Shown: positions 4,730 through 57,142, numbered from the stretch's first letter. The stretch: DNA of 64,000 nucleotides from an uncultured delta proteobacterium (GCA_963727625.1 CAVSHR010000009.1:416001-480000); one strand, 5' to 3'. Program-made: numbers and translations. Notes: generated by a model not told the origin, from the sequence alone.

Positions 4730-4786
4730 GCCCTGCCACCGCTCACGAACCGAGGGAGACCAATCGGCGAATAACGATTTTCCCAG

Positions 4787-5803: not shown

Positions 5804-5806
5804 TCC

Positions 5807-23171: not shown

Positions 23172-24362
23172 TTAGCGATCGCACTCCCCGCCGATCATGT
23201 TCACCATGCCGAAGGTCGGAATAATATCGGCGATCATGTAGCCCTTGATCATTTCGTGAAACGCGCCCATGGCGATGAAGCAGGGCGGCCGCACGCGCAT
23301 GCGGTAGGGCCTGCCGCCGCCGTCGCTGACGATATAAAAGCCCAGCTCGCCGTTGCCGCCTTCGACGGCGGAATAGGTCTCGCCCGCCGGAACCTTGATG
23401 CCATCCATGATGATTTTGAAATGGTGCATCAGACCTTCGATGCTGCCGTAGACCTTTTCTTTCTCCGGCAATACGAAGCGCGGATCGTCGATCCACACCG
23501 GCCCCACCGGCAACCGTTCCAGAGCCTGTTCGACGATCTTCATGCTCTGCTCGATTTCCCGCAGCCGGCAGACAAAACGATCGTAATTGTCGCCCTTGCT
23601 GCCCACCGGCACTTCGAAATCGAGCTGGTCATAAACAAGATAAGGGAAAGCCTTGCGCACATCGTAGCTCACCCCGGTGGACCTCAAGATCGGGCCGCTC
23701 AAGGAGTAACTCAAAGCAGTTTCCTGGGAAATCACCCCAATGTTGGAGACGCGGTCGAGAAAAATCCGGTTGCGCGATAGCAAACGATCGCAGTCGTCGA
23801 GCAGCCGGCGAATCGTCTTGAAAGCCTGTGTGACCCGCTCGGTGAAATCCTGCGGCAAATCATGCTTGACGCCGCCGATGCGCACGTAAGTCACGGTCAG
23901 CCGGGCGCCGGTCAGCCCCTCGACGATGCGAATAATAAGCTCGCGCGCCTCGATCATGTAGAAGCCGGCGGTAATCGCACCCAGCTCCGACGATGCCATG
24001 CCGCAGCAGGTCAGGTGGTCGTAAATCCGCGCCAGCTCGCTGATGATCACCCGGATATATTGGCAGCGCGGCGGCGTTTCCGCGCCGATGAGCTTTTCCA
24101 CCGCCAGCGCGTAGCCGACGTTGTTGATCAGCGACGAAGCATAATTGAGCCGGTCGGTGTAAGGGATGACCTGCGTCCAGGTCGCCTGCTCGCAGCTTTT
24201 GTCGAAGCCGCGATGGAGAAATCCGACCTCGACGTCGCAGGCAAGGACCTTTTCGCCTTCTAGCTTGAGATTGAATTTAATGGTGCCATGGGTCGCCGGA
24301 TGGGACGGTCCCATCTGCAGTTCCATAATTTCCGGTGGCAGTTCTTGGTTCCCGGCTTCCAT
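23172..24362 (-). CDS. nuoD: NADH-quinone oxidoreductase subunit D
   Basis: MGPSHPATHG, GFLHRG, DRLNY, ELARI, GELGFY, GECDR. Confidence 0.97.
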   Translation of the reverse strand: MEAGNQELPPEIMELQMGPSHPATHGTIKFNLKLEGEKVLACDVEVGFLHRGFDKSCEQATWTQVIPYTDRLNYASSLINNVGYALAVEKLIGAETPPRCQYIRVIISELARIYDHLTCCGMASSELGAITAGFYMIEARELIIRIVEGLTGARLTVTYVRIGGVKHDLPQDFTERVTQAFKTIRRLLDDCDRLLSRNRIFLDRVSNIGVISQETALSYSLSGPILRSTGVSYDVRKAFPYLVYDQLDFEVPVGSKGDNYDRFVCRLREIEQSMKIVEQALERLPVGPVWIDDPRFVLPEKEKVYGSIEGLMHHFKIIMDGIKVPAGETYSAVEGGNGELGFYIVSDGGGRPYRMRVRPPCFIAMGAFHEMIKGYMIADIIPTFGMVNMIGGECDR

Positions 24363-24378
24363 AAAATTCGGCCAAACG

Positions 24379-24942
24379 CTAGGTTTTGCTCCCCAGGGTT
24401 TTTTTCAAGCGCAGCAACTTGTTATGCGAGCGTTCGTCGACGAAGGTGCCCTCCACCTGGCGCTCGGGCACGCGCGGCTGGCAGAGGTTCACGGGATAAT
24501 CCTTGCGCAGCGGATGCCCCTGGAACTCGTCGTAGAGCAAAACCCGTCGCAGGTCCGGATGATCGATGAAGCGGATGCCAAAAAGGTCCCAGACCTCGCG
24601 CTCGAGAAAATTGGCGCCGCGCCAAAGCGGCGTCAGCGATTCCACCGCCGGATCGTTCTCGGGCACCGGCACGCGCAAACGCAGGCGGCGGTGCTGGCTG
24701 CGCGAGACGAGCTGATAGACGACTTCGAAGCGCGGCTCTTTTTCCTTCCAGTAATCCACCGCGGTAATATCGGACAGAAAGTCATATTCGAGCTGTTTGT
24801 CCTCTTTGAGCAGACGGAAGCTGTCGCGCAATCCGGTCCGCTCCAGCATCAACACGTCGTCGCCCTGAGCTTGCACGACCTCAAGCAGCCGTGCGCCGAG
24901 TTGTTGCTGGATAGTGACAATATGGGGGCTTGGCTCCGGCAT
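24379..24942 (-). CDS. nuoC: NADH-quinone oxidoreductase subunit C
   Basis: EREVWDLFGIRF, HPDLRR, GHPLRKDYP. Confidence 0.97.
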   Translation of the reverse strand: MPEPSPHIVTIQQQLGARLLEVVQAQGDDVLMLERTGLRDSFRLLKEDKQLEYDFLSDITAVDYWKEKEPRFEVVYQLVSRSQHRRLRLRVPVPENDPAVESLTPLWRGANFLEREVWDLFGIRFIDHPDLRRVLLYDEFQGHPLRKDYPVNLCQPRVPERQVEGTFVDERSHNKLLRLKKTLGSKT

Positions 24943-24948
24943 GTAAAA

Positions 24949-25305
24949 TCAATCCCAGTCCAGCGCGCCTTTTTTCCAAACGTAGACATAGCCGATGGTA
25001 AGAATGACGAGAAAAATTCCCATCTGCACCAAACCGAAGATTCCCAGCTGGCGAAAGTAGATCGCCCAGGGATAGAGAAACACCACTTCCAGGTCGAAAA
25101 TCAGGAACAACATGGCGATCAGATAAAAACGCACCGAAAACGGCATGCGGGCGTCGCCTTTCGGAGGATTACCGGACTCGAACGGCTCGGACTTTGCGGG
25201 GTTGGTCGATTTCGGGCCTAACTTGGTTGCCAGAGTGAGCAACGCGAGGACCACCACCGCTGCCAGTGCGAAGATAACCAGAAGCGGGAAATAGGGATCG
25301 TTCAT
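24949..25305 (-). CDS. nuoA: NADH-quinone oxidoreductase subunit A
   Basis: PFESG, FLIFDLEVVFLYPWA, KKGALDW. Confidence 0.97.
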   Translation of the reverse strand: MNDPYFPLLVIFALAAVVVLALLTLATKLGPKSTNPAKSEPFESGNPPKGDARMPFSVRFYLIAMLFLIFDLEVVFLYPWAIYFRQLGIFGLVQMGIFLVILTIGYVYVWKKGALDWD

Positions 25306-25572: not shown

Positions 25573-25693
25573 GACCGCACATGCATGCGCCGGATGGAGT
25601 AAATTCCGCGTTGACGATGGAGTCCGGCCGGTGCTAAGCGTCAGCCATTCGCTCAGCCGACTCGCGCTGGCGAAGTTTTTAAACGGAGGCTAT

Positions 25694-27055
25694 ATGACAT
25701 ACCAATCTGAAAGCGGCGACTTCACGATCGCTCTCGCCGGCGACACCATGCTCACCCGAAAACTTACGCCCTTCAAAGAAAAACGCTTTCTCGCCCTGCG
25801 CGATACTCTGCGCGGCGCCGACGCGGTCTTCGCCAACCTCGAAGGCACGGTGCACACCTGGGACGAAGGCACCCCCGGCATCACCCAGGGAACCTTCATG
25901 ACCACCGTGCCTGAGTTGGTCGAAGATTTAAAATGGCTCGGCGTCAACCTGGTCTCCTGCGCCAACAACCATGCCTACGACTACGGCGAAGGCGGCGTGC
26001 TCGCCAATCTCAATCATCTCGACGCCGCCGGCCTCGCACACGCGGGTACGGGCAGAAATCTCGCCGAGGCGCGCGCGCCAGGTTATTTCGACACACCGAA
26101 CGGGCGGGTGGCGCTGATTGCGATGACCGCGACGTTTCGACCCTGGAATCAAGCCGGCGAGCAGCGGCCGGATTTGCGCGGGCGGCCGGGCATCAATCCA
26201 CTTGGATTCACGACCACCTATAATGTCGATGCCGCCGCCTTCGAGCAGCTGCAGCGACTGAGCCGCGAGCTCGGCCTGGAAAAAAATCAAGAACGGGCGC
26301 GCAAGCATTTTTACAGCGACAAGGAAATCCCTGACGCGAAAGCGGCCGAGTTAAGCCTGCTCGGCCATCGCTATCGGCCGGGCGAAGGATTCTCGATCAC
26401 GACCAAGGCTAACGATCGCGATCTGCAGGATAATCTCCGCTGGCTGCGCGAAGCGCGCCGCCAGGCCGACTGGGTCGTGGTCAGCGCTCACTGCCACGAA
26501 TTCGGCGGCGCGAGTTTGTTGACCGCAAGCACCCGCGCCGAACTGGAAGAGAGCGCCGACTTCGTCAGCAAATTCGCCCACCAGGCGATCGACGCCGGCG
26601 CCGATGTGTTCGTCGGCCACGGCTCGCATTTTCCCATGGGGATCGAGATCTACAAGGGCAAGCCGATCTTCTACAGCGTCGGCAACTTCATTTTTCAAAA
26701 CGAGACCGTCGGCTTTTTCCCCGCCGACGCCTACGAGCGCTTCGATCTCGACCTAAAAGCTACGCCGTCGGATTTCCTCGACGCCAGAACCGCCGGCGGC
26801 AAGAAAGGCCACCCGAGCGATCCGGCCTATTGGGAAAACATGTTTGCCGTCTGCGAGTTCGCTGGCGGCAAGCTCAAAGAGATGAAAATTCATCCCATTG
26901 ACCAAGGCTTCGGCCGCCCCCGCCCCCAACGCGGCCGCCCCGTGCTCGCCGAAGGCGAAGTGGCCGAGCGCGTTATCAATCGAGTAACAAGGTTATCGCA
27001 AAGATACGGAACAAAGATTGCCCGCCGCGGCGACATGGGCGTGATTGAGCTCTAG
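25694..27055 (+). CDS. CapA (PGA_cap) family metallophosphoesterase
   Basis: AGD, NLEG, ANNHAYDYG, HCHE, GHGSH and YSVGNF motifs; start placed after GGAGG RBS. Confidence 0.9.
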   Translation: MTYQSESGDFTIALAGDTMLTRKLTPFKEKRFLALRDTLRGADAVFANLEGTVHTWDEGTPGITQGTFMTTVPELVEDLKWLGVNLVSCANNHAYDYGEGGVLANLNHLDAAGLAHAGTGRNLAEARAPGYFDTPNGRVALIAMTATFRPWNQAGEQRPDLRGRPGINPLGFTTTYNVDAAAFEQLQRLSRELGLEKNQERARKHFYSDKEIPDAKAAELSLLGHRYRPGEGFSITTKANDRDLQDNLRWLREARRQADWVVVSAHCHEFGGASLLTASTRAELEESADFVSKFAHQAIDAGADVFVGHGSHFPMGIEIYKGKPIFYSVGNFIFQNETVGFFPADAYERFDLDLKATPSDFLDARTAGGKKGHPSDPAYWENMFAVCEFAGGKLKEMKIHPIDQGFGRPRPQRGRPVLAEGEVAERVINRVTRLSQRYGTKIARRGDMGVIEL

Positions 27056-27329
27056 AGTTAGCTCGGTCGGATTTAGCGACCGCAGCGTTTCCCAAGGCCT
27101 CTCCCCCCCGGCGCCAGGTGTATCCATCGATCGAGAGAGCGCAATTTAAAGCGCCGGAGAGGGTGGACTGCGATTCGCGAGGCCTTATTTGCTTTTTGAT
27201 CCAGGGCTGAACCCCAGATCGTTCCTACATTGCTGACATATCTGGGCATAATCTCAATGCGTTCGATGCGGCACTACGCAACTTAACTGGTATTTGAGTA
27301 TACAACGGTTTTCTGCGGCAAGAAGCAAC

Positions 27330-27354
27330 TGGTCGGGGCGAGTGGGTTTGAACC
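27330..27354 (-). mobile_element. tRNA-Pro 3'-end fragment (putative att core)
   Basis: Minus strand GGTTCAAACCCACTCGCCCCGACCA = T-loop, acceptor 3' strand and CCA; no anticodon or D arm adjoins. Confidence 0.75.
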
Positions 27355-27513
27355 AACACTATGCCAGCGACAGTATCTGAAACATCTGATGTTTAAAGCG
27401 ATTTCGTATGCTTAGGGCAAGTCCACGCGAGATCTTGCCAATGTCTCAACCATTGAGTCCTGCAAAAACCGCAAGGGCTTTGGCTAGCGCCCCCGCGAAA
27501 GGTAATTGCCTGG

Positions 27514-28245
27514 TTGCAAAACATTGTTGACCCTAGCGACCGCTCCCTGCTAATTACGATGGCTATGGATCGTAAAAAACGAATCATCGCCGTCGGAGCC
27601 GCAGGCCCCGGCTTCGACGAAGCCCCGGATCCTCCGGCACCCGCGATTCGGACAGAACCCGCAACACAGGAGGCCGGCCCCGGCTGGACGGTGGTTTGTG
27701 AGGTCGGCGACGATGCTGTCGTGAAAGTATCCCAACGCGACCATATGCTGGCACGCATCGACGCCGCCAAGCGCGAGATTCTGACTGCCGACAGCATGGT
27801 CAAGCTGATGGCTTTTCGGAACAAGGCCGACGCGATTCGGCAGCTGGTTAGAGCCTCGCGAGACATGCAGCTCATCAACTTAGCCAACGAGCTCAAATTC
27901 AGATGTGAAACCCAGCTCGGAGAGATGCTGCGTGAGACGCGGCTAAGCAAGGGCGGCAGACCATCGAAAACCATTCCTGACATGAGGAATGGTTTTACTC
28001 TTCGCGAGCTCGGCATCGACAAGAACCTCTCATCATGGTGTCAGCGTCTCGCCGGCGCGCCAAAGGATAAATTCGAGCGGGTTATGACAGAGGCGCGAAC
28101 CGGCGAATGGGAGCTGACACGCCACAGCGTAAAAAAGTTTCTGCTGGGATGCCCGCCGGCGGGCCTTAAGAACTACGAGGAAGGCGTGGAACCGCAATAT
28201 CGCTGCCCTTCCTGCGGCTTTGCTTGGCGAGGGAAGCCTAAGTGA
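27514..28245 (+). CDS. Phage-like protein with C-terminal zinc ribbon
   Basis: RNKADAIR...ETQLGEML...KGGRP...TLRELGIDKNLSS resembles N-terminal domains of phage DNA methylase-associated proteins; CPSC at the C-terminus; start uncertain. Confidence 0.6.
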   Translation: MQNIVDPSDRSLLITMAMDRKKRIIAVGAAGPGFDEAPDPPAPAIRTEPATQEAGPGWTVVCEVGDDAVVKVSQRDHMLARIDAAKREILTADSMVKLMAFRNKADAIRQLVRASRDMQLINLANELKFRCETQLGEMLRETRLSKGGRPSKTIPDMRNGFTLRELGIDKNLSSWCQRLAGAPKDKFERVMTEARTGEWELTRHSVKKFLLGCPPAGLKNYEEGVEPQYRCPSCGFAWRGKPK

Positions 28246-28508
28246 ACGGGCTGATGTAAAGCCAGTAAACTAAGATTTCACCGCTATGTTCTTTATTTAG
28301 TCGAGGGGCGACGCTCATTGCGTTTATGGAGGGCGCGGAACTGTCGTGCAAAGAACTATGACGGTGATTCTACGCCTTAGCCCAGCCGGTGATGTCCAGC
28401 ACGGGATAAATCCCAATTGCAGAGATTGTTATGTCGGCAGACCCGGCTATCTCTTATAAATGATGGCAACTTCAGAGAAACTAGGAATGTCCCTTTTTCA
28501 TCCCCCGC

Positions 28509-28763
28509 CTAGGACTTCACAATTCTTAGCTTTGCGCGTTTTCGGTGCGCGAGACGTGCTCTGGCCTTGTCGGCGATCGCGTCTGCGGCCGCTTCGGCGT
28601 CCTTGATCGTTCGTTCGATTCTATCGGGAGCGATACCCCGGCAAATCAGGCTATCGATAACAGTTTTCTGCCGCAGCGACTTGAGCGCTTTCCTTATTAG
28701 TCTTGCCTCCGCCAACATCTCTTTTGGAATATTCGTCATTACGATCAGTTTATCGGTTTCCAT
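28509..28763 (-). CDS. Hypothetical basic helical protein
   Basis: ORF fills the gap with plausible composition; no recognised motif. Confidence 0.45.
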   Translation of the reverse strand: METDKLIVMTNIPKEMLAEARLIRKALKSLRQKTVIDSLICRGIAPDRIERTIKDAEAAADAIADKARARLAHRKRAKLRIVKS

Positions 28764-28933
28764 CTACGGTGCAAATCTGACCGGCGTCCTCGGCTCCAGT
28801 CGCGCAAATACAAAAAACTCTGTTCGTGAACGGGGCGAGCGGATTTGTTTGACTGTTGGCGACGGTCTCGGATAGTTTCCATGCTGTACCGCCCGAGCGG
28901 TGGAAAACAGAAGAAAATTGGAGGGAAAAGAAA

Positions 28934-29224
28934 ATGATCTCGCAGATTCGCATTTACACGATCAATAAGGGTGAGATGGATAATTTTCTCAAGCACTTCA
29001 AAGAGGACATCATGGTGCTGCACCAAAAGATCGGCGTCCCCATCGTCGGCACCTGGGTGAATCGGCCGCAAAACGAATTTATTTGGGTCAGAACCTACAA
29101 AGATAAAGCGGAGCTCGAAGCGAAGAACAAAGAGTTCCAAGCCGCGGTCGCCGCCGCCGGAGTCAAACTTGGCGGCAACGTTGCGAAGATGGAAGTGCGC
29201 GAGGCCGAGTCGGCGTTTGCGTAG
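28934..29224 (+). CDS. NIPSNAP family protein
   Basis: MISQIRIYTI...EFIWVRTY pattern; GGAGG RBS. Confidence 0.75.
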   Translation: MISQIRIYTINKGEMDNFLKHFKEDIMVLHQKIGVPIVGTWVNRPQNEFIWVRTYKDKAELEAKNKEFQAAVAAAGVKLGGNVAKMEVREAESAFA

Positions 29225-29566
29225 AGGCGGGTTACCCGGCGGTCACCGGCAGCGGCACGCCCATAGACGGATGTTAGGACAGGCCGACACTTTGCGGCTC
29301 GTCGTAGACGACCTGATTCAGTAGACTCCGGTCGTCGAGTCATTCAAGTGATGACGCACAAACTGCGTCAACGCCACCCTGACCCCTCACGTTTTCCCGA
29401 TGAGCCATGAATCGATGAATATGTTTACCAATTAACTGTCCGTCAAAGCCGGGATAGCTCAACCTGAGCCACATTCCCTGTTCTCTCCTTGCTGTCCGGG
29501 CAAATGGCGGACGTAGAGAGAATCTTTGATTTTGCTGGCTGAGCTATCCTATCTAAGGAACCACTG

Positions 29567-30691
29567 ATGGATTTTCACGCGTTTCTTTACGCTGTCGTCG
29601 GCCGGCGCGAAGAATTAGAGCGTGGGATGGCGGGGAAAGATCCAATATTATTTCAACGTATGTTGAATGAGATTGGAACTTACGCTCGACTGTGTGACGA
29701 AGCCGGCTACGCGGGTCTTGGGTTACCGGAGCATCACTTGCAGATCGAGGGCTTCGAGGCAGCGCAAGAGCCGGGGCTGCTGGCGCTGTATATCGGCATG
29801 CAGACCAAGAAACTGCGGCTCGACCAGTTTGGTTACGTGCTGCCCACCCATAATCCTCTGCGCGTAGCGGAGCATGCCGCCACTCTCGATCACCTGCTCG
29901 GTGGCCGTCTGAACGTAGCCTTTGTGCGCGGCTATCAGGCTCGCTGGTTCCAAAACTTTGCCGCGCTTCCGGGCATCAAAGCTGTAGGGGCTTGGAATCA
30001 ACGAACCCAAGAAGATCAAGCCAACCGCGAACTGTTCGAGGAGTGTGTCGACATCATCCTCACGGCTTGGCGCAAAGACACCTTCGCCTATAACGGTAAG
30101 TACTGGTCCTATCCCGCTGAAACCCGACTGCCGTACGATCATCCCGCGTATTATACCTATGGCCGGGGGGTCGGGCGGGATGGAACCGTGAAAGAAATCG
30201 GTATTGCGCCTCGCCCATTGCAGCAGCCCATTCCATTATACGGCGGCTTCACCAACAGTTTGCGAACGGTGCTGTATTGGGCGCGAGTCGGCGGCAAGCC
30301 GATCATCATGTCCGACAACATGGAATTCTGTGAGCTCTGTTGGAGTACCTACCGCGACGAGGCGGAGCGTTGCGGCCGCCGTGTTGCCGAGGGCGACGAG
30401 GCAGCTTGGGGAGGCTACCTGGTATTGGCCGAATCCAAAAGCGAGGCCGAAGCCTGGGCCGAGGATTGTCTATGGTATTGGAAAACCTGGTACGCACCCT
30501 ACGGCCGGGGTCTTCCACCCTTGCTCGTGGGCGATGTCGATACAATTTGCCGCAAACTCGATGCTGTCAGCCGACATGTCAAATCAAACGAGGTATTCCT
30601 GCAATTTGGCCAGGGGATTTTGGAACCTGACAAGTGTCTCAAGACGCTGGAGTTGTTCGCGGATAAAGTGATGCCTCGTTTCCGGGCTTAG
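29567..30691 (+). CDS. Luciferase-like (LLM class) flavin-dependent oxidoreductase
   Basis: PEHH, HNPLRVAEHAATLDHLLGGRL, PRPLQQP, LELFADKVMP. Confidence 0.92.
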   Translation: MDFHAFLYAVVGRREELERGMAGKDPILFQRMLNEIGTYARLCDEAGYAGLGLPEHHLQIEGFEAAQEPGLLALYIGMQTKKLRLDQFGYVLPTHNPLRVAEHAATLDHLLGGRLNVAFVRGYQARWFQNFAALPGIKAVGAWNQRTQEDQANRELFEECVDIILTAWRKDTFAYNGKYWSYPAETRLPYDHPAYYTYGRGVGRDGTVKEIGIAPRPLQQPIPLYGGFTNSLRTVLYWARVGGKPIIMSDNMEFCELCWSTYRDEAERCGRRVAEGDEAAWGGYLVLAESKSEAEAWAEDCLWYWKTWYAPYGRGLPPLLVGDVDTICRKLDAVSRHVKSNEVFLQFGQGILEPDKCLKTLELFADKVMPRFRA

Positions 30692-30776
30692 TGTCATCTC
30701 CTGTGACTTTGATGGTTGGTCTCGATGCTTTCACAGACTTTGTTTAGAGAAAATTTACCACTAAAAAGGAGTCGCT

Positions 30777-32675
30777 ATGTCTAACGATGCAAACCCGAAT
30801 CCGCTTGGCTCAAATCAAGTTCCATCGCGGCGATTCCTCGAGCCATCCGCCACATTTGTGCCCTTTCTCCGTGAGGATATCGAGCAATCCATCCCCGCGC
30901 GCTTCGAGCAAATCGTGCGCCGCTATCCCGATCGACTGGCGATCAAGACATCGCAGCATAACTGGACCTACGACCTATTGAACCGGGAAGCGAATCGCCT
31001 CGCCCACGCGCTTTTAGGGCGTGCCGGCGGCGGCAGATCTACCGTCGTTACCGTGATCGAACAGAGCGCGCCGCTCATCGCTGCCTATCTGGGTGCAATG
31101 AAAGCGGGAAAAATCGCCGTGGTGCTCGATCCGTCCCAGCCGTCTTCACGGCTCGCCGAGTTCATGGAAGAAAGCGAACCGACATGCGTCGTGACCAATG
31201 CCAACCAGTTTGCTCAGGCAGCGGAACTGGCCGGCTCGACCTGCCCGGTCATCAGGGCGGACCAGCTTCCGGCAGACCTTTCCGACATCAATCCTGACGC
31301 TCGATGCGCACCGGCCGACCCGGCGATGATTCTTTACACTTCCGGTTCGACGGGAAGACCCAAGGGGGTGATTGGCGATCACCGTAGTTGGATTCACAAC
31401 GCCCAAAGCTATGCCAACGCCTTTTACATCTGTTGCGAAGACCGCGTCACTCTGCTTTCGCTGGGAACCTCCCAGGCGGTGAAAAACATTTGCATGGCAC
31501 TCCTAAACGGCGCGGCGCTTTTTCCTTTCGAAGTGCGCCAAAGGGGCTTGGAAGAATTCTTGGCGCTGCTCGAACGCGAAAAGATTACCATCACGGTCAT
31601 GGGCGCCTCTCTATTCCGGTCGCTCGCCGATGTGCTTCCGAAGCCCGAACATCTGACCGATCTCCGTTTGATTCGTCTGGGCAGCGAACCGGTACAAAAA
31701 ACCGATCTGGATCTCTATAAAAAACATTTTCCATCCCATTGTTTGCTGGTGAACGGCCTGGCCTCCGGAGAAACCCAGACCACCAGATTCTATTGCATGG
31801 ACCACCGGAGCGAAATTTCCGCGAGCATCCTGCCCGTGGGTTACCCCATAGAGGATAAAACCATCCTGCTGCTCGACGACCACGGCAAGGAAGTGGCGCC
31901 GGGACAGGTGGGAGAAATCGTCGTTAAAAGCGAATATCTCGCGCCGGGTTATTGGCGTAATCCCGAGCTGACCGAAGCCGTTTTTCGCCCCGGTGAAACG
32001 CCAGCCGGCGCGCGTATGTACTTCACGGGCGACCTCGGTCGCATGGATGAGGACGGATGCCTCACCTGTCTGGGGCGGAAAAATGCCCGCGTCAAAATTC
32101 GCGGCTACGGCGTCGACCTCATCGAAGTCGAGATCGCCCTGACTCATTTAGACCAAGTGAAGGAAGCCGTGGTCATGGCGCACCAAAACAGCGCCGGCTA
32201 TGCGTATTTGGTTGGTTACATCGTCCCCGTGACTCTTCCAGGCCCGAGCAACAATGCACTGCGGCAAGCGCTGAGTGAGACGCTGCCGGATTACATGATT
32301 CCCACGACATTTGTGATTCTCGGCGCGTTGCCGCGGACAACTTCCGGTAAGATTGACCGTCAGGCATTGCCGGCACCGGGTCGCCCCTACCGAGACCTGA
32401 GCCGTCCACCGACACTGCCCCGCAGCCCAATGGAGACGACGATTGCGAAGATTTGGGGCGAAGTGCTGGGCCACAAAACGGTTGACGTCCATGACCATTT
32501 CTACGATTTAGGCGGCGAGTCCTTGCAGGGTTTGCGCATCATGGCGAAGATCCGCCAGACCTTCAACGTCGCCGTCGATATCCAGTCCCTGGTGGACGCT
32601 CCCACCGTGGCGGAAATGGCACTGCAAGTCACCAAACACATGGAGACGGGAACGGATGCGCATGGACGTAATTAG
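30777..32675 (+). CDS. Stand-alone NRPS-like adenylation + carrier (A-T) protein
   Basis: YTSGSTGRPKG, YFTGDLGR, VKIRGY, LPDYMIP, SGKIDR; carrier motif FYDLGGESL; no C or TE domain. Confidence 0.92.
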   Translation: MSNDANPNPLGSNQVPSRRFLEPSATFVPFLREDIEQSIPARFEQIVRRYPDRLAIKTSQHNWTYDLLNREANRLAHALLGRAGGGRSTVVTVIEQSAPLIAAYLGAMKAGKIAVVLDPSQPSSRLAEFMEESEPTCVVTNANQFAQAAELAGSTCPVIRADQLPADLSDINPDARCAPADPAMILYTSGSTGRPKGVIGDHRSWIHNAQSYANAFYICCEDRVTLLSLGTSQAVKNICMALLNGAALFPFEVRQRGLEEFLALLEREKITITVMGASLFRSLADVLPKPEHLTDLRLIRLGSEPVQKTDLDLYKKHFPSHCLLVNGLASGETQTTRFYCMDHRSEISASILPVGYPIEDKTILLLDDHGKEVAPGQVGEIVVKSEYLAPGYWRNPELTEAVFRPGETPAGARMYFTGDLGRMDEDGCLTCLGRKNARVKIRGYGVDLIEVEIALTHLDQVKEAVVMAHQNSAGYAYLVGYIVPVTLPGPSNNALRQALSETLPDYMIPTTFVILGALPRTTSGKIDRQALPAPGRPYRDLSRPPTLPRSPMETTIAKIWGEVLGHKTVDVHDHFYDLGGESLQGLRIMAKIRQTFNVAVDIQSLVDAPTVAEMALQVTKHMETGTDAHGRN

Positions 32676-32847
32676 CTGCTCGAAACGGCGAACGCAATCC
32701 GCGGTGACAGAGCGCGGGAGTGATCCCACCTGGTGCAGTTTCAACCTGGAACAGGACATCGGCCAATATTTTTCCTCCTTTGGCCTGTACCGCTCTGAAA
32801 TCAAGCAGGGCCGTCCAGTGGTGGGCGGCCGCTAAAGCGCTCGGACT

Positions 32848-33729
32848 ATGAAGGTATCGCTCGCTAAACTTTCGTACCGAACGCCCGGCATTCGTTTGGC
32901 GAGCAAAGCGATACCGCCCGCCTGGTTCTTCCGCTGGACGAGTTGGACCGCCAGCCTCACGGCCCGTTCGGGACTGACCCGGCAGTCACGGCTCAAATAT
33001 TTTCGGACCGTGTTGGCTTCAACCCATGACCCGGCGCGGCTGGAGGAGCTGGGGAGAAAGCACCTTCTCTTCCGCAAATGGGGCCGTACCATGCTTTGGG
33101 CTTGGCCCTGCTGGGCGGAGCGGCATAACGATCTTGTGCTGGTCGAAGGCGAGGAACACCTCAAGTCGGCGCTGCGTGAAGGGCGCGGCGCATTTCTGTT
33201 ATCGGGACACTTTTACGGCTTCGAGCGGATTGTCGCCCCGGCGTTGGCCGAGCGCGGCTACCGCATGAACCGCACCGGCTTCGGCTGGCGCGGCGACGAC
33301 ATCTCGGAGCGCTGGGGCAAAGGAAGCTATGCCCGTTGGGAACATATCAACTACGGCGACGATCGCCGCCAACGTCTGCAGGCACTCGCAAAGATCGAGC
33401 GCGCGCTTGGGCGCAACGAGGTCGTCCATTTATCCATACGCGGATTTTCTCAAGGCGAGCCGCAGTTCGAGATCCCGTTTTTCTACGGAAGGTTTTTTCT
33501 CGATGGGCGGCTGCTTGAAACTCTCGAACTTTTAGAGGCGCCGGTACTGCCCTGCTTCGCCCTGTCGGATGAGCGGGGCCGGTTCGTTATCCGCTTGTAT
33601 CCTGCCGCGCCGCCGAGAAGAGCCGAGATCATGTCCGGATTCGGACAACGCTACGCCGGTTATCTTCGAGACCATCCCGAGTTTGCCCAAATCTGGAAAA
33701 ACGTCGCCCAGAAACGAAAGGAATGGTGA
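32848..33729 (+). CDS. LpxL/HtrB-like lysophospholipid acyltransferase family protein
   Basis: VEGEEHLKSALREGRGAFLLSGHFYGFE (Hx4E), IPFF, APVLP, HPEF..W. Confidence 0.78.
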   Translation: MKVSLAKLSYRTPGIRLASKAIPPAWFFRWTSWTASLTARSGLTRQSRLKYFRTVLASTHDPARLEELGRKHLLFRKWGRTMLWAWPCWAERHNDLVLVEGEEHLKSALREGRGAFLLSGHFYGFERIVAPALAERGYRMNRTGFGWRGDDISERWGKGSYARWEHINYGDDRRQRLQALAKIERALGRNEVVHLSIRGFSQGEPQFEIPFFYGRFFLDGRLLETLELLEAPVLPCFALSDERGRFVIRLYPAAPPRRAEIMSGFGQRYAGYLRDHPEFAQIWKNVAQKRKEW

Positions 33730-33824
33730 CGTGGATAAGCGCAGCGATCCTTTTCTGCGCGGCGGCGAACGTAGATTCCCGGAAGTTGACCGGAAAAACC
33801 TTTCCAAGTACGATGTTTTCTCAC

Positions 33825-34010
33825 ATGACCGCCATCGCTAAAAAATTGGACGCTAAAATGAGCCGCTGGACGCCGGAAACCGCGAAGAAGGTCGAGAAGC
33901 TGGTCGCTGAAATTATCGAATTGGCCGATAATGACGCGCTCGACTTGGTCCGGTCCCGGCAAGTCGAACAGGAAGTTCTAAACATCATCGATGGCCGCAA
34001 AGCCGGGTGA
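33825..34010 (+). CDS. Putative antitoxin of a PemK/MazF module
   Basis: Small ORF whose end overlaps the toxin start; start uncertain. Confidence 0.6.
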   Translation: MTAIAKKLDAKMSRWTPETAKKVEKLVAEIIELADNDALDLVRSRQVEQEVLNIIDGRKAG

Positions 34011-34308
34011 AGTTTGGCTCGCTGATCTAGGACTCACCGCTAAAACCCGCCCCGTGATAATTGTCTCCCGCGGGGATCCCGATGCGCCTCGGGCCCCTGT
34101 TACGTACATTCCCCTGACGACCCAAAATCGCAATAGCCGTTACGAAATCGATGTGGGCAAACTCAGGTTTCTTAGAGAAACCTCCGTTGCCAATGTTCAG
34201 GGCATCGGTTCAATTACTTCGGTTCGTCTTCAGCGAAAGCTCGGCGTACTTCCCAATGATGTTCTAAATAGGGTAAAGGACGCTGTGAGATTTGCTCTCG
34301 ATTTCTAG
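33991..34308 (+). CDS. PemK/MazF family endoribonuclease toxin
   Basis: PGEVWLADLG..AKTRPVIIVS and IPLTT motifs. Confidence 0.9.
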   Translation: MAAKPGEVWLADLGLTAKTRPVIIVSRGDPDAPRAPVTYIPLTTQNRNSRYEIDVGKLRFLRETSVANVQGIGSITSVRLQRKLGVLPNDVLNRVKDAVRFALDF

Positions 34309-51306: not shown

Positions 51307-52329
51307 CTATTTTTTGGCCATGATCAGCATCGTTCCCGGCAATGTCTTGGGAACCTCGCCGTGGGTTTCAATCGACGCGAATCCCGCTTTCTTGAGCCAG
51401 TCGGAATACTGCGACAGCGTCCAGCACTCGCCCTCCGGCGTGTGCGTCAGCGTGTAGACGGAAAAGCGCAAAGCGAAAGTCGGTTCGGTCCGTTCTTCGT
51501 TGGGGACGAAATCGTTGACGACAAAGATGCCGCCGGGTTTGAGCGCCGAGAAGGCTTTGGCGAATAATTCCTGATTACCCTTGGGGGATTCGAAGCGGCA
51601 GAAGTTACTGGCTAGAACTAAATCGTAATAATTCGACTCGATGTTGGCGGTGTGATGCTCGCCGTCGATGAAGCGGATCTTGCCTTCGAGGCCGCGCTCT
51701 TTGTTAGCCTTCTTGGCTACCGCATTGACGTTGGGCCAGTCGAGCTGTGTCACCTGCGCGGTTGGATCGCGCGTCACGATCGTCATGCCGAAGATGCTCG
51801 AGCCGCCGGCAATGTCGAGCACGCGCATGCCCCTGCGCTCCGTGCCGATTTTCAGGATATCGCAGAGCGCCTTGGCGGCTGGCTCGGCGATCACGATGAT
51901 GCCGAGCACCAGTTTTTCCCAAACCGGCAACTCGGCATTGGTATCCATGCGGCTCAGCGGTTTGCCGGTCTTGAGCGATTCTTTGAGATGCGCCATGCCG
52001 TCCCATAGCGCCAGAGCGACATGGCGGAAATCGCCGCAATAGGACGGCTTCCCTTTGACCAGAAAGGCCTGCGCTGATGGCGTGAGAAAATACTTGCCGT
52101 CGCGTTTTTCGATCAACGACAACGCCGGCAAGCTGTCGAGCACGATGCGCGTGGCGCGCGCATCCGTGCCGGCTTCCCGCGCCACCGCTTCAGCGCTGGT
52201 GAAACCTTTGCTGATCAGCGTGAAAAAATCGTACTCCAGCGCCGCGTCGAGAATTTGACTATTGGCGAAATCGCCGAGTATCCGCATCAGCGGACGGGGT
52301 GAAATATCTTCGTGGGTAGACTCCGCCAT
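51307..52329 (-). CDS. O-methyltransferase (Methyltransf_2 type with dimerisation domain)
   Basis: N-terminal AALEYDFFT dimerisation region, VLDIAGGS, LKPGG; start set at MAESTHED. Confidence 0.88.
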   Translation of the reverse strand: MAESTHEDISPRPLMRILGDFANSQILDAALEYDFFTLISKGFTSAEAVAREAGTDARATRIVLDSLPALSLIEKRDGKYFLTPSAQAFLVKGKPSYCGDFRHVALALWDGMAHLKESLKTGKPLSRMDTNAELPVWEKLVLGIIVIAEPAAKALCDILKIGTERRGMRVLDIAGGSSIFGMTIVTRDPTAQVTQLDWPNVNAVAKKANKERGLEGKIRFIDGEHHTANIESNYYDLVLASNFCRFESPKGNQELFAKAFSALKPGGIFVVNDFVPNEERTEPTFALRFSVYTLTHTPEGECWTLSQYSDWLKKAGFASIETHGEVPKTLPGTMLIMAKK

Positions 52330-52331
52330 AA

Positions 52332-53126
52332 TTATTCTTTGTACAGGCCTTCCTGCTTGATTTGCTGATAAACCCCCTCGAAGAACCAGGCGAAATACGC
52401 TGTGCCCATGCGCATGCAGTATTCTAAGTTGAAGCCCGGGCGGGTTTCGGCCTTGCCTTCGGTGAGCAAATTCTTCAAGACCAGCCAATCGAGATCGGCG
52501 TGGGCCATAATGCCATCATGCTCTTCCAGGTCAGCTTTGGCATGCACGCTAAAGTAGACGATCTTTTCTTCAGGAAAGTTGTAGACCTTGCGTAGCGCGG
52601 TGCCAAAGAAGCGCGCCCAGTGGCCCACCGCCTCTTCAACGCAGAAGGATGCCCACCACTCGGCGGTGGTGCCTTCATAAAGAACGCCTCGGTAGTATTC
52701 CAAGAATGCCCGGCATTCGGCGAGCATTTCGTACTCGACCATTTCGTCGTCGCGCAAACCGAAGTTGCGCCCCTGTTCGAGGACAATCTGAATATGGCCG
52801 GGGGGTTTGGGATGGATCATCTCGTCGGCCACATGGGCGGCAAAGTGTTTGAGCAGCTCGGGGTGACGTTTGAAAAATGGCTGCTGCCGTTGGTAGGCGA
52901 CGCCGTGAAAATTGTTGATTTCGGCGACAAAGCCATACCAGTTCTGCCAAAAGATTTTGATCGCCTCCATCGGCAGCGTGCCGTTACCCATGTCCGTGTG
53001 AAAGCGTCCCTTGATCAGCCACTTGTCGGCGATACCCAACAGATACGCTTTCAAATCCGCGATCACCGCGTCGGCTTCCTGCGGCGCCAGCTTCTTGCCG
53101 GAAAAATCCTGCCTGCCTAGTCCCAT
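52332..53126 (-). CDS. Heme-oxygenase-like diiron enzyme (PqqC/CADD/TenA fold)
   Basis: DEMIHPKPPGH, CVEE and YFSVHAKADLEEH...H metal-ligand pattern. Confidence 0.72.
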   Translation of the reverse strand: MGLGRQDFSGKKLAPQEADAVIADLKAYLLGIADKWLIKGRFHTDMGNGTLPMEAIKIFWQNWYGFVAEINNFHGVAYQRQQPFFKRHPELLKHFAAHVADEMIHPKPPGHIQIVLEQGRNFGLRDDEMVEYEMLAECRAFLEYYRGVLYEGTTAEWWASFCVEEAVGHWARFFGTALRKVYNFPEEKIVYFSVHAKADLEEHDGIMAHADLDWLVLKNLLTEGKAETRPGFNLEYCMRMGTAYFAWFFEGVYQQIKQEGLYKE

Positions 53127-53217
53127 AAAGTTCTCCTTACCGCAAATCTCGCGAAACCTTTAGTGCTATATTTCTTGGACGTTGAACTTTTGAACGCTTG
53201 AACCTTGAACGAACTTA

Positions 53218-54702
53218 TTAATAGAGCGCCCCAGGGTTGAGAATATTATTAGGATCCACCATCTGTTTGATTTCTTTGATCACGTCGTAAAGGTTGCCGA
53301 GCCGCTGGTACGGCAGCGGCCCCTTGGTGCTGAGCGTCGGCGCGGTCCAGACCACGCCCCGTTCGTTGCTGAACTGCTGAACCATTCCCATCCATTTGCG
53401 CAATCTGCCGATGTCTTCGTCATCGTAGGGGTTGTAGAAAACGAAGTACTCTTCTTTAATGCCGAAGTCGCGGGTGACGTAACTGTCGTGCTGAGGCGAA
53501 TGTGCGGCGTCCCACAGGCCGCACTCGCGTTTGGCCGCCTCGTCGAGATCGTACATCTCTTTCAAAAACGTCAGCGGGTACATTTTCGACGTCACCGCGA
53601 ACATGCCGGTGTGGCGAACCACAGTGCCGCACCAGCCGTCCGGCCCCATGACATGCCAGTCGGGCCAGCCGCGCAGTCCATGTTCTTGCGCCTTAGCGCC
53701 CATTGCCTTTTCGGCAATCTCCGGCACGTCGACGCCGCCGGCGTCATGATAGATGCGCCGCATGCGCCTTTCCTTGAGCGCGAGTTCTTCCTGGTCGCGC
53801 GCCATCAGCATGGTCTTCAAGAAAAACCAGCCGTCGTCGGGAATCTTGCTCTTGTCGTATAAACCCTCTTCCATCGGCCAGTGATACTGCCAGCGGTCGG
53901 TAAAATGGATATCGTAAACCGCCTCGCCTTTGACCTGCTGCATGAGCGCATTTTGCGCTTCCGCCAGCTGATCGCGGCGGAAAGAATAGCAATAATCGTG
54001 CAGCCACTCGCGCCTGCCCTCGATGGCTCGCAGGCAGACCTTGGTGATAATCCCCATGGAGCCCGCGGCGAGCGTGAAGAGTCCGAGCAGGTCCGGCAAG
54101 TGAATCCATTTTTGAAACGGCCCGAAGGTCGTCTCTTGATTGGCCAGCGCGCCAAGGCGAATAGTTTCGCCGTTGGCGAGCACCACTTCCAGACCGAGCA
54201 CCATGTCGGCGATCCAGCCGTAGCGCGTCATGCCGTAGCCGATGCCGCCCTTGTTGATCATCGCGCCGATCACCACCGCCGGGCCGTAGGTGCCGAAGTT
54301 GGGCAGCATCAAACCATGCCGCCTGAGCGCGTAGTGAATCGCATAGACACTCGCGCCGCCCTCGGCGATCACATACTGCATAGTCGAATTCACTTCGAGG
54401 ATTTTGTCCATGCCGAGCATATCCAGCAACAGACCACCCTTGAGGGGAGAGCTGATGCCCATGCCGACGCCGCCTTTGGCGACGATGGGAATCTTATGCT
54501 CGTTGGCAAATTTCAGAATCTCGGCCACCGGCTGATTGCCTTGGGTGTCGGACTCGACGCGCACGATCACGTCGGGCAGCGCCCGATAAGCGCCGTATGC
54601 GAGCGTGTGCTGGTAGTTGATCTTGTCGATCGGGTTGGTCGAGACGTGGCGCGGGCCGACGATCTCTTTCAATTTCGCGACAATCTCTTCGACAGAAAGC
54701 AT
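53218..54702 (-). CDS. FAD-binding oxidoreductase (GlcD/VAO-PCMH family)
   Basis: PDVIVR, VLGLEVVLANG, GSMGIITK, DPNNILNPG. Confidence 0.87.
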   Translation of the reverse strand: MLSVEEIVAKLKEIVGPRHVSTNPIDKINYQHTLAYGAYRALPDVIVRVESDTQGNQPVAEILKFANEHKIPIVAKGGVGMGISSPLKGGLLLDMLGMDKILEVNSTMQYVIAEGGASVYAIHYALRRHGLMLPNFGTYGPAVVIGAMINKGGIGYGMTRYGWIADMVLGLEVVLANGETIRLGALANQETTFGPFQKWIHLPDLLGLFTLAAGSMGIITKVCLRAIEGRREWLHDYCYSFRRDQLAEAQNALMQQVKGEAVYDIHFTDRWQYHWPMEEGLYDKSKIPDDGWFFLKTMLMARDQEELALKERRMRRIYHDAGGVDVPEIAEKAMGAKAQEHGLRGWPDWHVMGPDGWCGTVVRHTGMFAVTSKMYPLTFLKEMYDLDEAAKRECGLWDAAHSPQHDSYVTRDFGIKEEYFVFYNPYDDEDIGRLRKWMGMVQQFSNERGVVWTAPTLSTKGPLPYQRLGNLYDVIKEIKQMVDPNNILNPGALY

Positions 54703-54711
54703 GGGGAAAAC

Positions 54712-54836
54712 AATTGGTAATGGAGAATCGATAATTGAAAATTTACAATTCGGACAATCTACGCCGACTGGCTTCGGCTGGTGAGCAGTTCGGTAATTCC
54801 GGGGTTATCAATTCTCCATTATCCATTGTCAATTCT
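54712..54836. repeat. Heptamer-like inverted repeat unit inside the operon
   Basis: aatggagaatcgataattgaaaatt versus ttatcaattctccattatccattgtcaatt. Confidence 0.7.
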
Positions 54837-55613
54837 TCAAAGCTGCAGATGGCTGCCGCCGGTGATCAGGATATGGCTGCCCGTGAGCATGCTCGCTTCA
54901 TCACCGGCCAGGAACGCGATGGCGCCGGCGACATCTTCGGGATAGAGGTGTTTCTGCAGCGGCCGGGTGTCCTTGACTCGCTCCCTGTATGCCTCGGGCA
55001 TAATCATCGACGCATCGGTTAGCGTAAACGCCGGCGTAACGACATTGACGGCAATGCCTAAAGGCCCCAATTCGATCGCCATGGTATTGGCCATGGATTC
55101 GAGAGCCGATTTCGCCGCGGCATAAGCGCCCATCCTCGGCAACGGCTGCTGCGCCAATCGGGTGCTGACCACGATGATTCGGCCGCTCTTCTTTTGTTGC
55201 ATGGCGGGCAAACACGCGCGCGTGCAATGGAAGAATGCCGACAGCTCGTGCTCAATGGAGCGCTGAAAACCCTCCCAGGACAGCGCGTACAACGGACCAA
55301 CCTCAAAGGGAAAGTAGGCGTTGTTGACCAAGACATCGACGGGGCCGAGCGCCTGCTCAGTCGTCTGCACCATCTTGTCGATCTGATCCTTCCGGGTTAC
55401 GTCCGCTTGAAAGATTATCCCGCGGGCGCCGGAGTTCCTAACTTCCTGGAGGACCTTGTCGGCGGCCTCCTGATTCCGGTGGTAATTGACGACCACCGCG
55501 GCCCCGCCTTGGGCCAACCGGATGGCGGCCGCCGCACCGATGCCGCGGCTCGCGCCGGTCACAAGAGCAACCTTCCCGTCCAGCGGGCGACTGCTTAACT
55601 GGCCAGCCATCAA
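54837..55613 (-). CDS. Short-chain dehydrogenase/reductase
   Basis: TGASRGIG, NNA and YAAAK motifs. Confidence 0.92.
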   Translation of the reverse strand: MMAGQLSSRPLDGKVALVTGASRGIGAAAAIRLAQGGAAVVVNYHRNQEAADKVLQEVRNSGARGIIFQADVTRKDQIDKMVQTTEQALGPVDVLVNNAYFPFEVGPLYALSWEGFQRSIEHELSAFFHCTRACLPAMQQKKSGRIIVVSTRLAQQPLPRMGAYAAAKSALESMANTMAIELGPLGIAVNVVTPAFTLTDASMIMPEAYRERVKDTRPLQKHLYPEDVAGAIAFLAGDEASMLTGSHILITGGSHLQL

Positions 55614-55624
55614 GTTGGACCCGA

Positions 55625-57106
55625 TCAGATCGCGACGGCGTCTTCGGCGGCGCCTTTTTCGTATTTAGCGGCGTTGTTCTTAAATGACAGGAACTTCATT
55701 TTTACATAAGGCGAGCTGTAACCGTTCAAAATCCGCTCGACGCGGCCCGGCTTGCTGTAGAATGATTGGAACGCCCAGCCTGTCAGTTCGCCCAACTGCT
55801 GGCGTGTCAAATGCTTGGTCGGCATGACAGAGTGCTCGAGATCGTACAGGCTAAGATTGTCGATTTCGATGATGTTGTTCTTGATGGCGGCCTTATATAT
55901 GGGTGAGCCCGGAATCGGATTGAGCACCTGAATCATGACGATATCGGGATCGATCTCGTCGACGGCTTTCGCGCGTTGGCGGATCTTAGCTTCGTCATCC
56001 TCCCAAAAACCATTCAAATAAGTGGAAATCGTTGAAATGTCGTTCTTGCGTAGAAACTGAATCAGCTCTTTCAGTTCTTTGACGCCAACCTTCATCGGTC
56101 CCTTGCGCGCCTCGGCGATCTCTTCGTCCGTGCCGCCATCGATGCCGATCAAGACTTGATACAAGCCGACCTTGCGCAAACGCGGCACCAAATCCATGTC
56201 ACGAATTAGGTTTTGCGCTCGGCTGAGCATGAACCAACTCATGTCTAATTTTTTCTCTTCCAACGCTTCGACCAAGTCGACCATCTTTTGCCGATCGGAG
56301 TTGAAATCGTCGTCCATGAAGGTGAGCGCTTTGACGCCATAAGTTTTGTTCAGCAGCTCCATTTCTTCAGCGACTTTCTTGCCGCCTTTGGTTCGGTGCG
56401 AGCTGAAATCGCGCGGATTGCGCTGGTCGACCAGCCACCACTCGTAGCAGAAATGACAAGCGCCCTCGCATCCCCGGGAAGTCACCGTCTCGTTGTAATT
56501 GGGAATCACCGAGTAGCCATAGTACTTGTCCATCGGAAAGAGATCGTAGGCCGGCATGGGCAGTTCATCGAGATTGGCAATCACCGGCCTTGCCGGCGTA
56601 AGCACGACCTCGCCGTTGTCGCGGTAAGCCAGTCCCTTGATCCCGCTGAAATCGGGCGCGGGTTTTTTCAATTCCGCTAAGAGCTCCCACACCGCATACT
56701 CATTGTCGCCGAACACTCCGACAATCGCGAAGTCGAGCTGGGGGTTATCGGTCATGATTTTCTGCGGCACGGCGGTGTACATCAAACCGCCGCCGATAGT
56801 AATCGTGCTCGGGGTAACGTCCTTAATTTTCTTCATCGCTGCATGAAAGCGGTTCAACGTGGCGGCGCCGCCTGCAGCAGCGATCATCGCGCCGAAGAAA
56901 ACCGCGTCAGGTTTTTGCCGGCGAACCTCGTCCACCATCTGCTCGTCGGTCAGACCCAGGGCGCGGCAGTCGAGCACCGACACCTCAGCCGCCTTCTTTT
57001 CGCGGATGAATGCAGCGAGCTGAGAATACAGCGAGTTGACGGCAAAATGGCGGTCGCCCCAAGGCGCCCAATTTCCCATGGGGGGCGTAATAAATAGGAG
57101 TTTCAT
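55625..57106 (-). CDS. Cobalamin-binding radical SAM enzyme (BchE-like superfamily)
   Basis: N-terminal B12-binding domain, LDELPMPAYDL, SRGCEGACHFC; start at MKLLF after AGGAG RBS. Confidence 0.92.
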   Translation of the reverse strand: MKLLFITPPMGNWAPWGDRHFAVNSLYSQLAAFIREKKAAEVSVLDCRALGLTDEQMVDEVRRQKPDAVFFGAMIAAAGGAATLNRFHAAMKKIKDVTPSTITIGGGLMYTAVPQKIMTDNPQLDFAIVGVFGDNEYAVWELLAELKKPAPDFSGIKGLAYRDNGEVVLTPARPVIANLDELPMPAYDLFPMDKYYGYSVIPNYNETVTSRGCEGACHFCYEWWLVDQRNPRDFSSHRTKGGKKVAEEMELLNKTYGVKALTFMDDDFNSDRQKMVDLVEALEEKKLDMSWFMLSRAQNLIRDMDLVPRLRKVGLYQVLIGIDGGTDEEIAEARKGPMKVGVKELKELIQFLRKNDISTISTYLNGFWEDDEAKIRQRAKAVDEIDPDIVMIQVLNPIPGSPIYKAAIKNNIIEIDNLSLYDLEHSVMPTKHLTRQQLGELTGWAFQSFYSKPGRVERILNGYSSPYVKMKFLSFKNNAAKYEKGAAEDAVAI

Positions 57107-57142
57107 CTTAATCTCCTGGCTATGGCGGGATTCGTTCAATTG

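Follow-up and report, generated by a model that had tools for sequence, protein, structure and literature searches.

A conserved cassette of a luciferase-like monooxygenase, a stand-alone adenylation-thiolation protein and an acyltransferase of predicted PatA/LpxM fold in an uncultured soil bacterium

LpxL and LpxM take their acyl donor from a carrier protein, and LpxXL has a dedicated carrier, AcpXL. PatA of Mycobacterium smegmatis, an acyltransferase acting on phosphatidylinositol mannosides, uses palmitoyl-CoA and is not known to have a dedicated ligase or carrier, and Aas of E. coli is an acyl-acyl carrier protein (ACP) synthetase fused to a lysophospholipid acyltransferase of the PlsC type. 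AlmG of Vibrio cholerae is distantly related to the late acyltransferases of lipid A. The AlmEFG system of V. cholerae is described, in the excerpt cited, as adding glycine to lipid A (PMC4278540). Fungal non-reducing enzymes that resemble nonribosomal peptide synthetases (NRPS) and consist of adenylation, thiolation and thioesterase domains (A-T-TE) are described as condensing aromatic alpha-keto acids (PMC9047271, in part). We have analyzed a stretch of 64,000 nucleotides from an uncultured soil bacterium (GCA_963727625.1, contig CAVSHR010000009.1, 416001-480000; hereafter the window), in which three adjacent genes encode a luciferase-like monooxygenase (LLM), a stand-alone adenylation-thiolation (A-T) protein and an acyltransferase (AT). 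Judged from sequence comparison, this cassette is AlmEFG-like in outline and falls outside AlmE, AlmF, LpxL and Aas in the membership tests that were run. In the reading that we favor, and to which we give an even chance, the A-T protein would tether an acid other than an amino acid, the LLM would oxidize it, and the AT would transfer it from the thiolation (T) domain to an acceptor hydroxyl. The features of the cassette, in window coordinates, are as follows.

29549 to 33739, + strand: three-gene span common to relatives (run X6 contig and run X7 pieces; tblastn against loci L041 and L042)
29567 to 30691, + strand: LLM, 374 amino acids (aa) (PF00296, 86.8 bits; structure model with a predicted local distance difference test score, pLDDT, of 89.2)
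30777 to 32675, + strand: stand-alone A-T protein, 632 aa (AMP-binding, AMP-binding_C and PP-binding domains)
31461 to 31490, + strand: A4 region LGTSQAVKNI, whose Ser occupies the position of GrsA Asp235 (HMMER alignment to LgrA; MAFFT alignment to an NRPS paralogue)
31752 to 31775, + strand: A5 motif NGLASGET instead of NxYGPTE, without Pro (alignments)
32520 to 32522, + strand: Ser582 in GGES, the presumed phosphopantetheine attachment site, within the PP-binding match
32848 to 33729, + strand: AT, 293 aa, an acyltransferase of predicted PatA/LpxM fold in a small distinct subfamily (profiles, model and fold search)
33202 to 33225, + strand: SGHFYGFE, with the invariant H121 and the clade-specific E126 (family alignment)

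Open reading frame (ORF) calling in the window placed LLM, A-T and AT, all on the + strand and co-oriented, exactly at 29567-33729, where an earlier note on this DNA had put three such genes. Pfam found no condensation (C), thioesterase (TE) or reductase domain in the A-T protein, which agrees with the description of it in that note as standing alone; ligase and carrier are, as the note also held, fused in a single protein. The intergenic gaps measure 85 bp between LLM and A-T and 172 bp between A-T and AT. A sequence like a ribosome-binding site, AAGGAA, lies upstream of the LLM start codon, and AAGGAG lies 6-7 nt upstream of the A-T ATG; the AT start has no clear ribosome-binding site.

The loci L041 and L042 carry LLM, A-T and AT in the identical order, and their tblastn matches to the window are confined to these three genes. 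The run X6 contig (4270 nt) is approximately 91% identical to the window over 29549-33739 and unlike it beyond both ends. Together with the run X7 pieces it matches the window at 29549-32664 and 32795-33739; compared with these contigs, the window has 130 nt more between A-T and AT. Because the same order recurs in L041 and L042 and the identity of the X6 contig ends at the cassette borders, the grouping of the three genes is not due to chance. The conservation of the neighborhood, which had been proposed as a check, was found: all three genes co-occur in order in L041, L042 and the X6 contig. Neither the upstream genes (PGA_cap/MslH-like and NIPSNAP-like) nor the downstream genes (MazF-like and methyltransferase) had matches in the flanks of L041 and L042, and they are not counted as parts of the cassette. 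Decayed copies of the cassette occur in L001, L043 and L044, where A-T residues 202-593 are followed by AT residues 153-293 in another frame. The same lesion is present in all three contigs (8848-10423 in L001), and an inverted T-domain fragment lies upstream.

Like AlmEFG, the cassette consists of three adjacent, co-oriented genes in which a ligase would load a carrier and a transferase would then move the group on. It differs from AlmEFG in several respects. A single protein holds its ligase and its carrier (T domain at residues 555-615), whereas AlmF is separate; free carriers are found in the paralogous modules described below. Its ligase is of the NRPS type rather than DltA-like, with the amino-binding Asp replaced by Ser; it has an added LLM; and its AT belongs to a separate small subfamily, AlmG having been compared by description. 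The adenylation (A) domain scored 194.2 and 184.7 bits against the DltA models, which have cut-offs of 476 and 559.85, and its sequence places it with NRPS-type rather than DltA/AlmE-type domains. Kinship with AlmEFG, to which the earlier note had likened the cassette, is not supported, and neither is aminoacylation: the DltA scores are below their cut-offs, Asp235 and the A5 Pro are absent, and the AT stays below the cut-off of every LpxL-family equivalog.

The carrier-dependent part of the proposal fared better. With tblastn, Pfam and NCBIfam, a ligase was found beside members of the AT subfamily at five other sites in the window's own genome, in genomes from its taxonomic family and at loci from metagenomes. 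These partner ligases are AMP-forming, about 485-500 aa long and fatty-acyl-CoA-ligase-like, below every cut-off, and a free PP-binding protein of 77-105 aa usually also stands beside AT and ligase. Counts were based on 54 AT matches, which form 36 clusters at 90% identity and of which 21 have at least 2 kb of sequence on both sides. Among these 21 matches a ligase lies within 3 kb in 21 and a carrier scoring 50 bits or more in 17, as counted with local hidden Markov models built from a subset of the loci then counted; no such carrier was found at L137, at L138, which is truncated, or at L001 and L044, which are remnants. Over all 54 rows the ligase was found in 41, the carrier in 39 and both in 29, most misses being at contig ends. 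Ligase and carrier identities were confirmed by Pfam and NCBIfam for a subset of the loci. Because the ligase (21/21) and the carrier (17/21) lie so regularly near the AT, carrier-dependent acyl transfer is well supported by this genomic context, and the suggestion that the cassette is a carrier-dependent transfer system stands. The same comparison bears out the view of the flavin enzyme as an addition, since an LLM lies near the AT in only 3/36 clusters, all within the window's clade. In a quick tree this clade has a support of 100 and is nested among clades with ligase and free carrier partners.

The five additional ligase, carrier and AT modules of the window's genome (G000) lie at C5:611701-624181, C6:76734-79501 and C4:852671-855651 (L090, L091 and L092). 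Contig C5 carries three of them in a span of 13 kb, and in one of these three the AT is split and the ligase fragmented. Their recurrent neighbors are NMT1-like binding proteins, OCD/mu-crystallin proteins, FAD_binding_2 proteins and a major facilitator superfamily (MFS) transporter. The OlsHI ornithine-lipid pathway was considered and rejected as a counterpart: the free carriers weakly match its ACP model, but OlsHI is described, in the portion cited, as a GH3-like enzyme with an alpha/beta-hydrolase (PMC12493201).

The likeness of the AT to LpxL is weak by sequence and, as judged from its structure model, firm by fold. Against Pfam PF03279 (Lip_A_acyltrans) the AT scored 16.9 bits, with a gathering cut-off of 22.3, and the members of its subfamily 18.9-49.6 bits. 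Among the NCBIfam models for late acyltransferases of the LpxL/LpxM/LpxP group, the best scores were 21.8, 16.3 and 15.3 bits; the corresponding cut-offs, 491, 540 and 297.8, were not reached. A model made from 30 family sequences (pLDDT 86, predicted template modeling score 0.88) was searched with Foldseek, and LpxM of A. baumannii and PatA of M. smegmatis took the top ranks. In VIA-align comparisons the model superposed on PatA with a Z score of 20.1 (3.5 A over 232 residues), on LpxM with 18.5 and on PlsC with 8.1. PatA is the closest structural match, although sequence identity is only 16%, and its structure entry is titled 'membrane associated'; the AT likewise lacks a transmembrane (TM) anchor. 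With LpxL and LpxM the AT shares the fold and the His of the Hx4E motif, which is conserved in the AT family; it differs in scoring below the equivalog cut-offs, in a motif acid that varies across the family and in having no N-terminal TM segment, none being found by a hydrophobicity scan in any AT family member. The comparison with Aas runs similarly. In both, a lipid acyltransferase forms a unit with a carrier and an AMP-forming ligase, and two AT paralogue loci adjoin an MFS transporter. No PF01553 (PlsC-type) match was found by Pfam, the fold is nearer to PatA than to PlsC, and the carriers in the AT systems are dedicated.

The Hx4E string of the AT is SGHFYGFE, with H121 and E126. H121 is invariant in 30/30 aligned family members, and position 126 is acidic in 7/30 (six rows of the window's clade and P0024) and mostly Ser otherwise. 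In LpxM, according to the part of a review cited here, the motif His pairs with a distal Asp and the motif Glu with an Arg (PMC6286764); by analogy, a non-canonical partner for H121 is therefore plausible. The earlier note had called the AT an LpxL-like Hx4E acyltransferase; the Hx4E string is present, the fold of the model is that of PatA and LpxM, and the sequence scores for LpxL are all below the cut-offs.

A word-indexed search with the AT returned 25 proteins at E <= 0.001 among 4662 candidates, one of them from a Candidatus Binatia metagenome-assembled genome. When 1.84 billion representatives were searched with a profile, 26 matches reached E <= 1e-30 and 2762 reached E <= 0.001; 19 full-length proteins at 233-420 bits ranked first, followed by fragments and then by generic PF03279 proteins at 97 bits or less. 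A quick maximum likelihood tree separated the AT family from seven generic PF03279 proteins with an SH-aLRT support of 100. By these sequence measures the subfamily of the AT is small and sharply set apart. In a sample of the class, members occur in 5/25 other genomes of the window's taxonomic family, with all copies 44% or less identical to the window AT, and in 0/275 genomes of other families.

The A-T protein comprises AMP-binding (residues 43-393, 199.5 bits), AMP-binding_C (residues 450-525, 40.7 bits) and PP-binding (residues 555-615, 52.7 bits) domains. Its A domain reached 289.2 bits against TIGR01733, which has a cut-off of 317.4. The strings YTSGSTGRPKG, YFTGDLGR, GRKNARVKIRG and SGKIDR are presumably adenylation core motifs, to which we assigned them by their customary names, and A4 and A5 are atypical. 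We take GGxS to be the phosphopantetheine attachment motif, hence Ser582 of GGES. A Ser at the Asp235 position and an A5 motif NGLASGE without Pro were found in both alignments, HMMER against LgrA and MAFFT against a same-genome NRPS paralogue with canonical F-D and YGPTE. We set the GrsA numbering on the motifs partly by assumption; the predicted ten-position pocket of the window A domain then reads S, Q, K, A, R, G, G, T, T, K. Throughout the LLM-linked A-T lineage, which includes A-T-TE and A-T-C forms, the pocket is S/A, Q, K, A, R, G, G, T, T/I/V, K (13/13 aligned members), with S at position 235 in 11 and A in 2. In the portion cited of a 2024 review, D235 and K517 were regarded as invariant for alpha-amino acids, and D235 is said to be substituted in A domains that take hydroxy-, keto- or aryl acids (PMC11253843). 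The significance of the A5-motif Pro for alpha-amino-acid activation is taken from the same source, whose proline is, by our reading of the LgrA alignment, the Pro of motif A5. Because Asp235 and the A5 Pro are both missing, we conclude that the predicted substrate of the A-T protein is an acid other than an alpha-amino acid. The pocket contains Lys and Arg, which hint at a polar or anionic acid.

In L041, and in this relative only, a thiamine pyrophosphate (TPP)-dependent enzyme of 700 aa is encoded directly upstream of the LLM (4522-6624, + strand), co-oriented and ending 166 bp before it. The model that fits it best is PRK08327, and at 191 bits it resembles benzoylformate decarboxylase; its presence points, weakly, to 2-oxo-acid chemistry. 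Genes of the A-T type are abundant in the host genome (C4:1531-1552 kb, C4:1620-1633 kb, C2:541-548 kb and C9:508-513 kb), and 8/9 aligned paralogous A domains lack the canonical F-D and YGPTE, as does that of the window.

The LLM is a member of PF00296 (cut-off 27.9), and its predicted fold is that of a TIM barrel (Foldseek E 4e-22 to 2i7g). All fold matches at ranks 1-50 are flavin mononucleotide (FMN)-dependent monooxygenases or unnamed LLMs; those with names are the Atu2307-type 2i7g, RslO1, luciferases, the OX domain 6ket of a hybrid polyketide synthase (PKS)/NRPS, a type II Baeyer-Villiger enzyme, SfnG, MsuD, SsuD and LadA. The 6ket domain is the best sequence match (E 1.8e-11; fold TM-score 0.70/0.79), and in both the LLM is associated with a carrier-bearing protein, as in assembly-line LLM oxygenases. 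None of the NCBIfam LLM subfamilies reaches its cut-off, and against the MupA/Atu3671 family TIGR04020 the LLM scored 55.4 bits, with a cut-off of 244. No flavin reductase gene lies within the cassette. An F420-dependent LLM was ranked lower, as its top NCBIfam match, an F420 subfamily with a cut-off of 166.9, reached 60 bits and the named fold matches use FMN. The LLM family is large (790 matches). In the class sample it is present at E <= 1e-80 in 49/301 genomes, including 45/48 genomes of a different taxonomic family at 52-58% identity. Unlike assembly-line LLMs, these relatives have no A-T match in their 1.5-kb flanks.

An A-T gene adjoins the LLM in 1/29 loci fetched with such flanks. In this genome (G257), which belongs to the window's taxonomic family, an 86%-identical LLM directly precedes a 918-aa A-T-TE protein. 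Homologues of the A-T protein in the databases (59-70% identity) are of two kinds, A-T-TE proteins of about 870-925 aa and A-T-C proteins of about 1040-1060 aa. Four of these homologues and close LLM homologues agree in the size of their longest contig (36191, 268446, 9066 and 4980), and three AT matches agree with A-T matches in the same way (3995, 15019 and 4076); equal contig sizes suggest that A-T homologues share contigs with LLM homologues. On this sequence evidence the LLM belongs with this A-T lineage and not with the AT lineage, and the window cassette joins two lineages, with the AT standing where relatives have TE or C. Since the sister A-T forms end in TE or C, the AT appears to replace one of these domains as the off-loading enzyme. 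The fungal NRPS-like enzymes share the A-T-TE arrangement with these sister forms, and the window A domain lacks Asp235; the window differs from the fungal type, with which it is likened by description, in that the TE is replaced by a separate AT and in its LLM partner, which is foreign to that type.

The mechanism that we favor would run as follows. A phosphopantetheinyl transferase encoded elsewhere in the genome, which has two PF01648 genes, must first prime the T domain. The A domain would then adenylate a carboxylic acid other than an alpha-amino acid, our best guess being a 2-oxo, 2-hydroxy or otherwise polar or anionic acid, and load it as a thioester on its own T domain. The LLM, most likely a two-component FMN-dependent monooxygenase, would oxidize either the tethered acyl group or its free precursor. 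The AT would take the acyl group from the T domain and esterify an acceptor hydroxyl, and by analogy with the fold relatives of the AT the acceptor would most likely be a membrane-associated lipid or glycolipid.

Several observations weigh against this mechanism. In L040 an LLM and an AT are neighbors in divergent orientation, with no A-T between them. The acid of Hx4E is not conserved in the family, so that the catalytic arrangement is uncertain. A TM segment is missing from the AT, in which the 19 residues of highest hydrophobicity (1.29) lie in the core and not at the N-terminus. TE and C domains, with which the sister systems end, usually set free soluble products. CofD is encoded in the genome, and an F420-dependent reductive role of the LLM is possible. 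The origin of the counting models in part of the counted loci, and our placement of the GrsA numbering, tell in the same direction.

Because the LLM/A-T pair has sister forms with fused TE or C, a small-molecule product is a serious rival. The cassette would then be a minimal NRPS-like pathway in which the AT acts as a trans-acting release enzyme, esterifying the LLM-oxidized acid to a soluble alcohol, and the envelope plays no part. A soluble ester is the main rival, since sister systems end in TE or C, and we regard it as somewhat unlikely. The TE or C in the place of the AT in the closest A-T relatives, the richness of the genome in NRPS-type A-T genes, the missing TM segment of the AT and the TPP-dependent enzyme upstream of the LLM in L041 would all suit such a pathway. 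It fits poorly with the two strong solved matches of the AT model, PatA and LpxM, which both acylate membrane lipids, and with the usual partners of the AT lineage, which are fatty-acyl-CoA-ligase-like enzymes.

Transfer might also run in the reverse sense, the AT using acyl-ACP or acyl-CoA to O-acylate a hydroxyl of the T-bound (hydroxy)acid so that the carrier would bear an acyloxyacyl product. Esters of the acyloxyacyl type are what LpxL-family enzymes make on 3-hydroxyacyl chains, and the LLM could create the hydroxyl. We consider this quite improbable: the cassette would be left without a release enzyme, and a dedicated carrier throughout the family fits a donor carrier more simply. Incidental adjacency, with the AT an ordinary acyl-ACP- or acyl-CoA-dependent lipid acyltransferase that has nothing to do with A-T and LLM, seems to us similarly doubtful. 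The AT is preceded by a gap of 172 bp and has a weak ribosome-binding site, and this, like the arrangement of L040 without an A-T, could be explained in this way; a ligase within 3 kb in 21/21 informative AT loci, relatives that share exactly these three genes between differing flanks, and the spacer of the X6 and X7 contigs, shorter by 130 nt, all speak against it. A true AlmEFG-type system, placing an amino acid on lipid A and so changing surface charge, would match the gene logic of ligase, carrier and PF03279-superfamily transferase seen in AlmEFG (PMC4278540, in part) and a host that makes lipid A (LpxC at 253.7 bits, above its cut-off), and is nonetheless highly improbable given an A domain without the amino-binding Asp or A5 Pro, DltA-type models far below their cut-offs, an AT at 21.8 bits or less on any LpxL-family model, and six canonical PF03279 genes besides the AT elsewhere in the genome that can serve lipid A.

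The cassette lies between a nuo operon on one side and a stretch with a MazF-like gene, a methyltransferase and an Mrr-type nuclease on the other, and GC content is lower in the latter stretch. A defense-system reading was rejected, as the AT and the A-T protein had no PADLOC match and the LLM only a weak oxidoreductase match. An Rfam scan of the whole window gave no match at the gathering score, and predicted terminators and promoters were not more numerous than in shuffled sequence. In the nuo operon (23172-25305, - strand), the small subunits of which were scanned in part, nuoA (24949-25305) is directly followed by nuoC (24379-24942), with no room for nuoB between them. A PGA_cap (CapA-like) protein is encoded at 25631-27055 (+ strand) and scored 320 bits against the MslH lasso-peptide Trp-epimerase model, which has a cut-off of 700. 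The following 2.5 kb (27055-29566) are of lower GC and have no Pfam match beyond a weak NIPSNAP (28856-29224); a 243-aa ORF in this region (27514-28245) ends in a CxxC pair. Directly after the cassette (33723-34308, + strand), a MazF/PemK-like ORF (33991-34308) overlaps a 95-aa upstream ORF (33723-34010), and the two are likely a toxin-antitoxin pair. Genes for an O-methyltransferase, a TENA/PQQC-like protein, a FAD_binding_4 oxidase, a short-chain dehydrogenase/reductase and a B12-binding radical SAM enzyme at 51307-57139 (- strand) form a run of the tailoring type that may be a separate small biosynthetic cluster.

Within the collection searched, no paper combined an LpxL-family acyltransferase with an A-T protein or an LLM. 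In a wider reading, which we put forward tentatively and hold to be rather unlikely as a whole, the AT would represent a new class of trans-acting, carrier-dependent off-loading acyltransferases of PatA/LpxM fold, which would stand in for TE or C domains and draw on carriers loaded by a ligase or an A-T protein; the six paralogous modules of the genome would decorate envelope lipids, possibly lipid A, with unusual acids, and the module in the window would add a flavin-oxidized non-amino acid. The architecture and the exchange of TE, C and AT are neat and testable, and the sister LLM and A-T-TE systems, which should release the same oxidized acid as a free product, offer an easy experimental handle. 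If true, a lipid A-type acyltransferase fold would have been recruited as an enzyme of release and transfer for NRPS-like carriers, and assembly-line chemistry would be linked to the remodeling of envelope lipids, two fields that are usually kept apart. It would likewise mark out, in uncultured soil bacteria, a small and so far unstudied subfamily of enzymes whose ligase and carrier partners are fixed.

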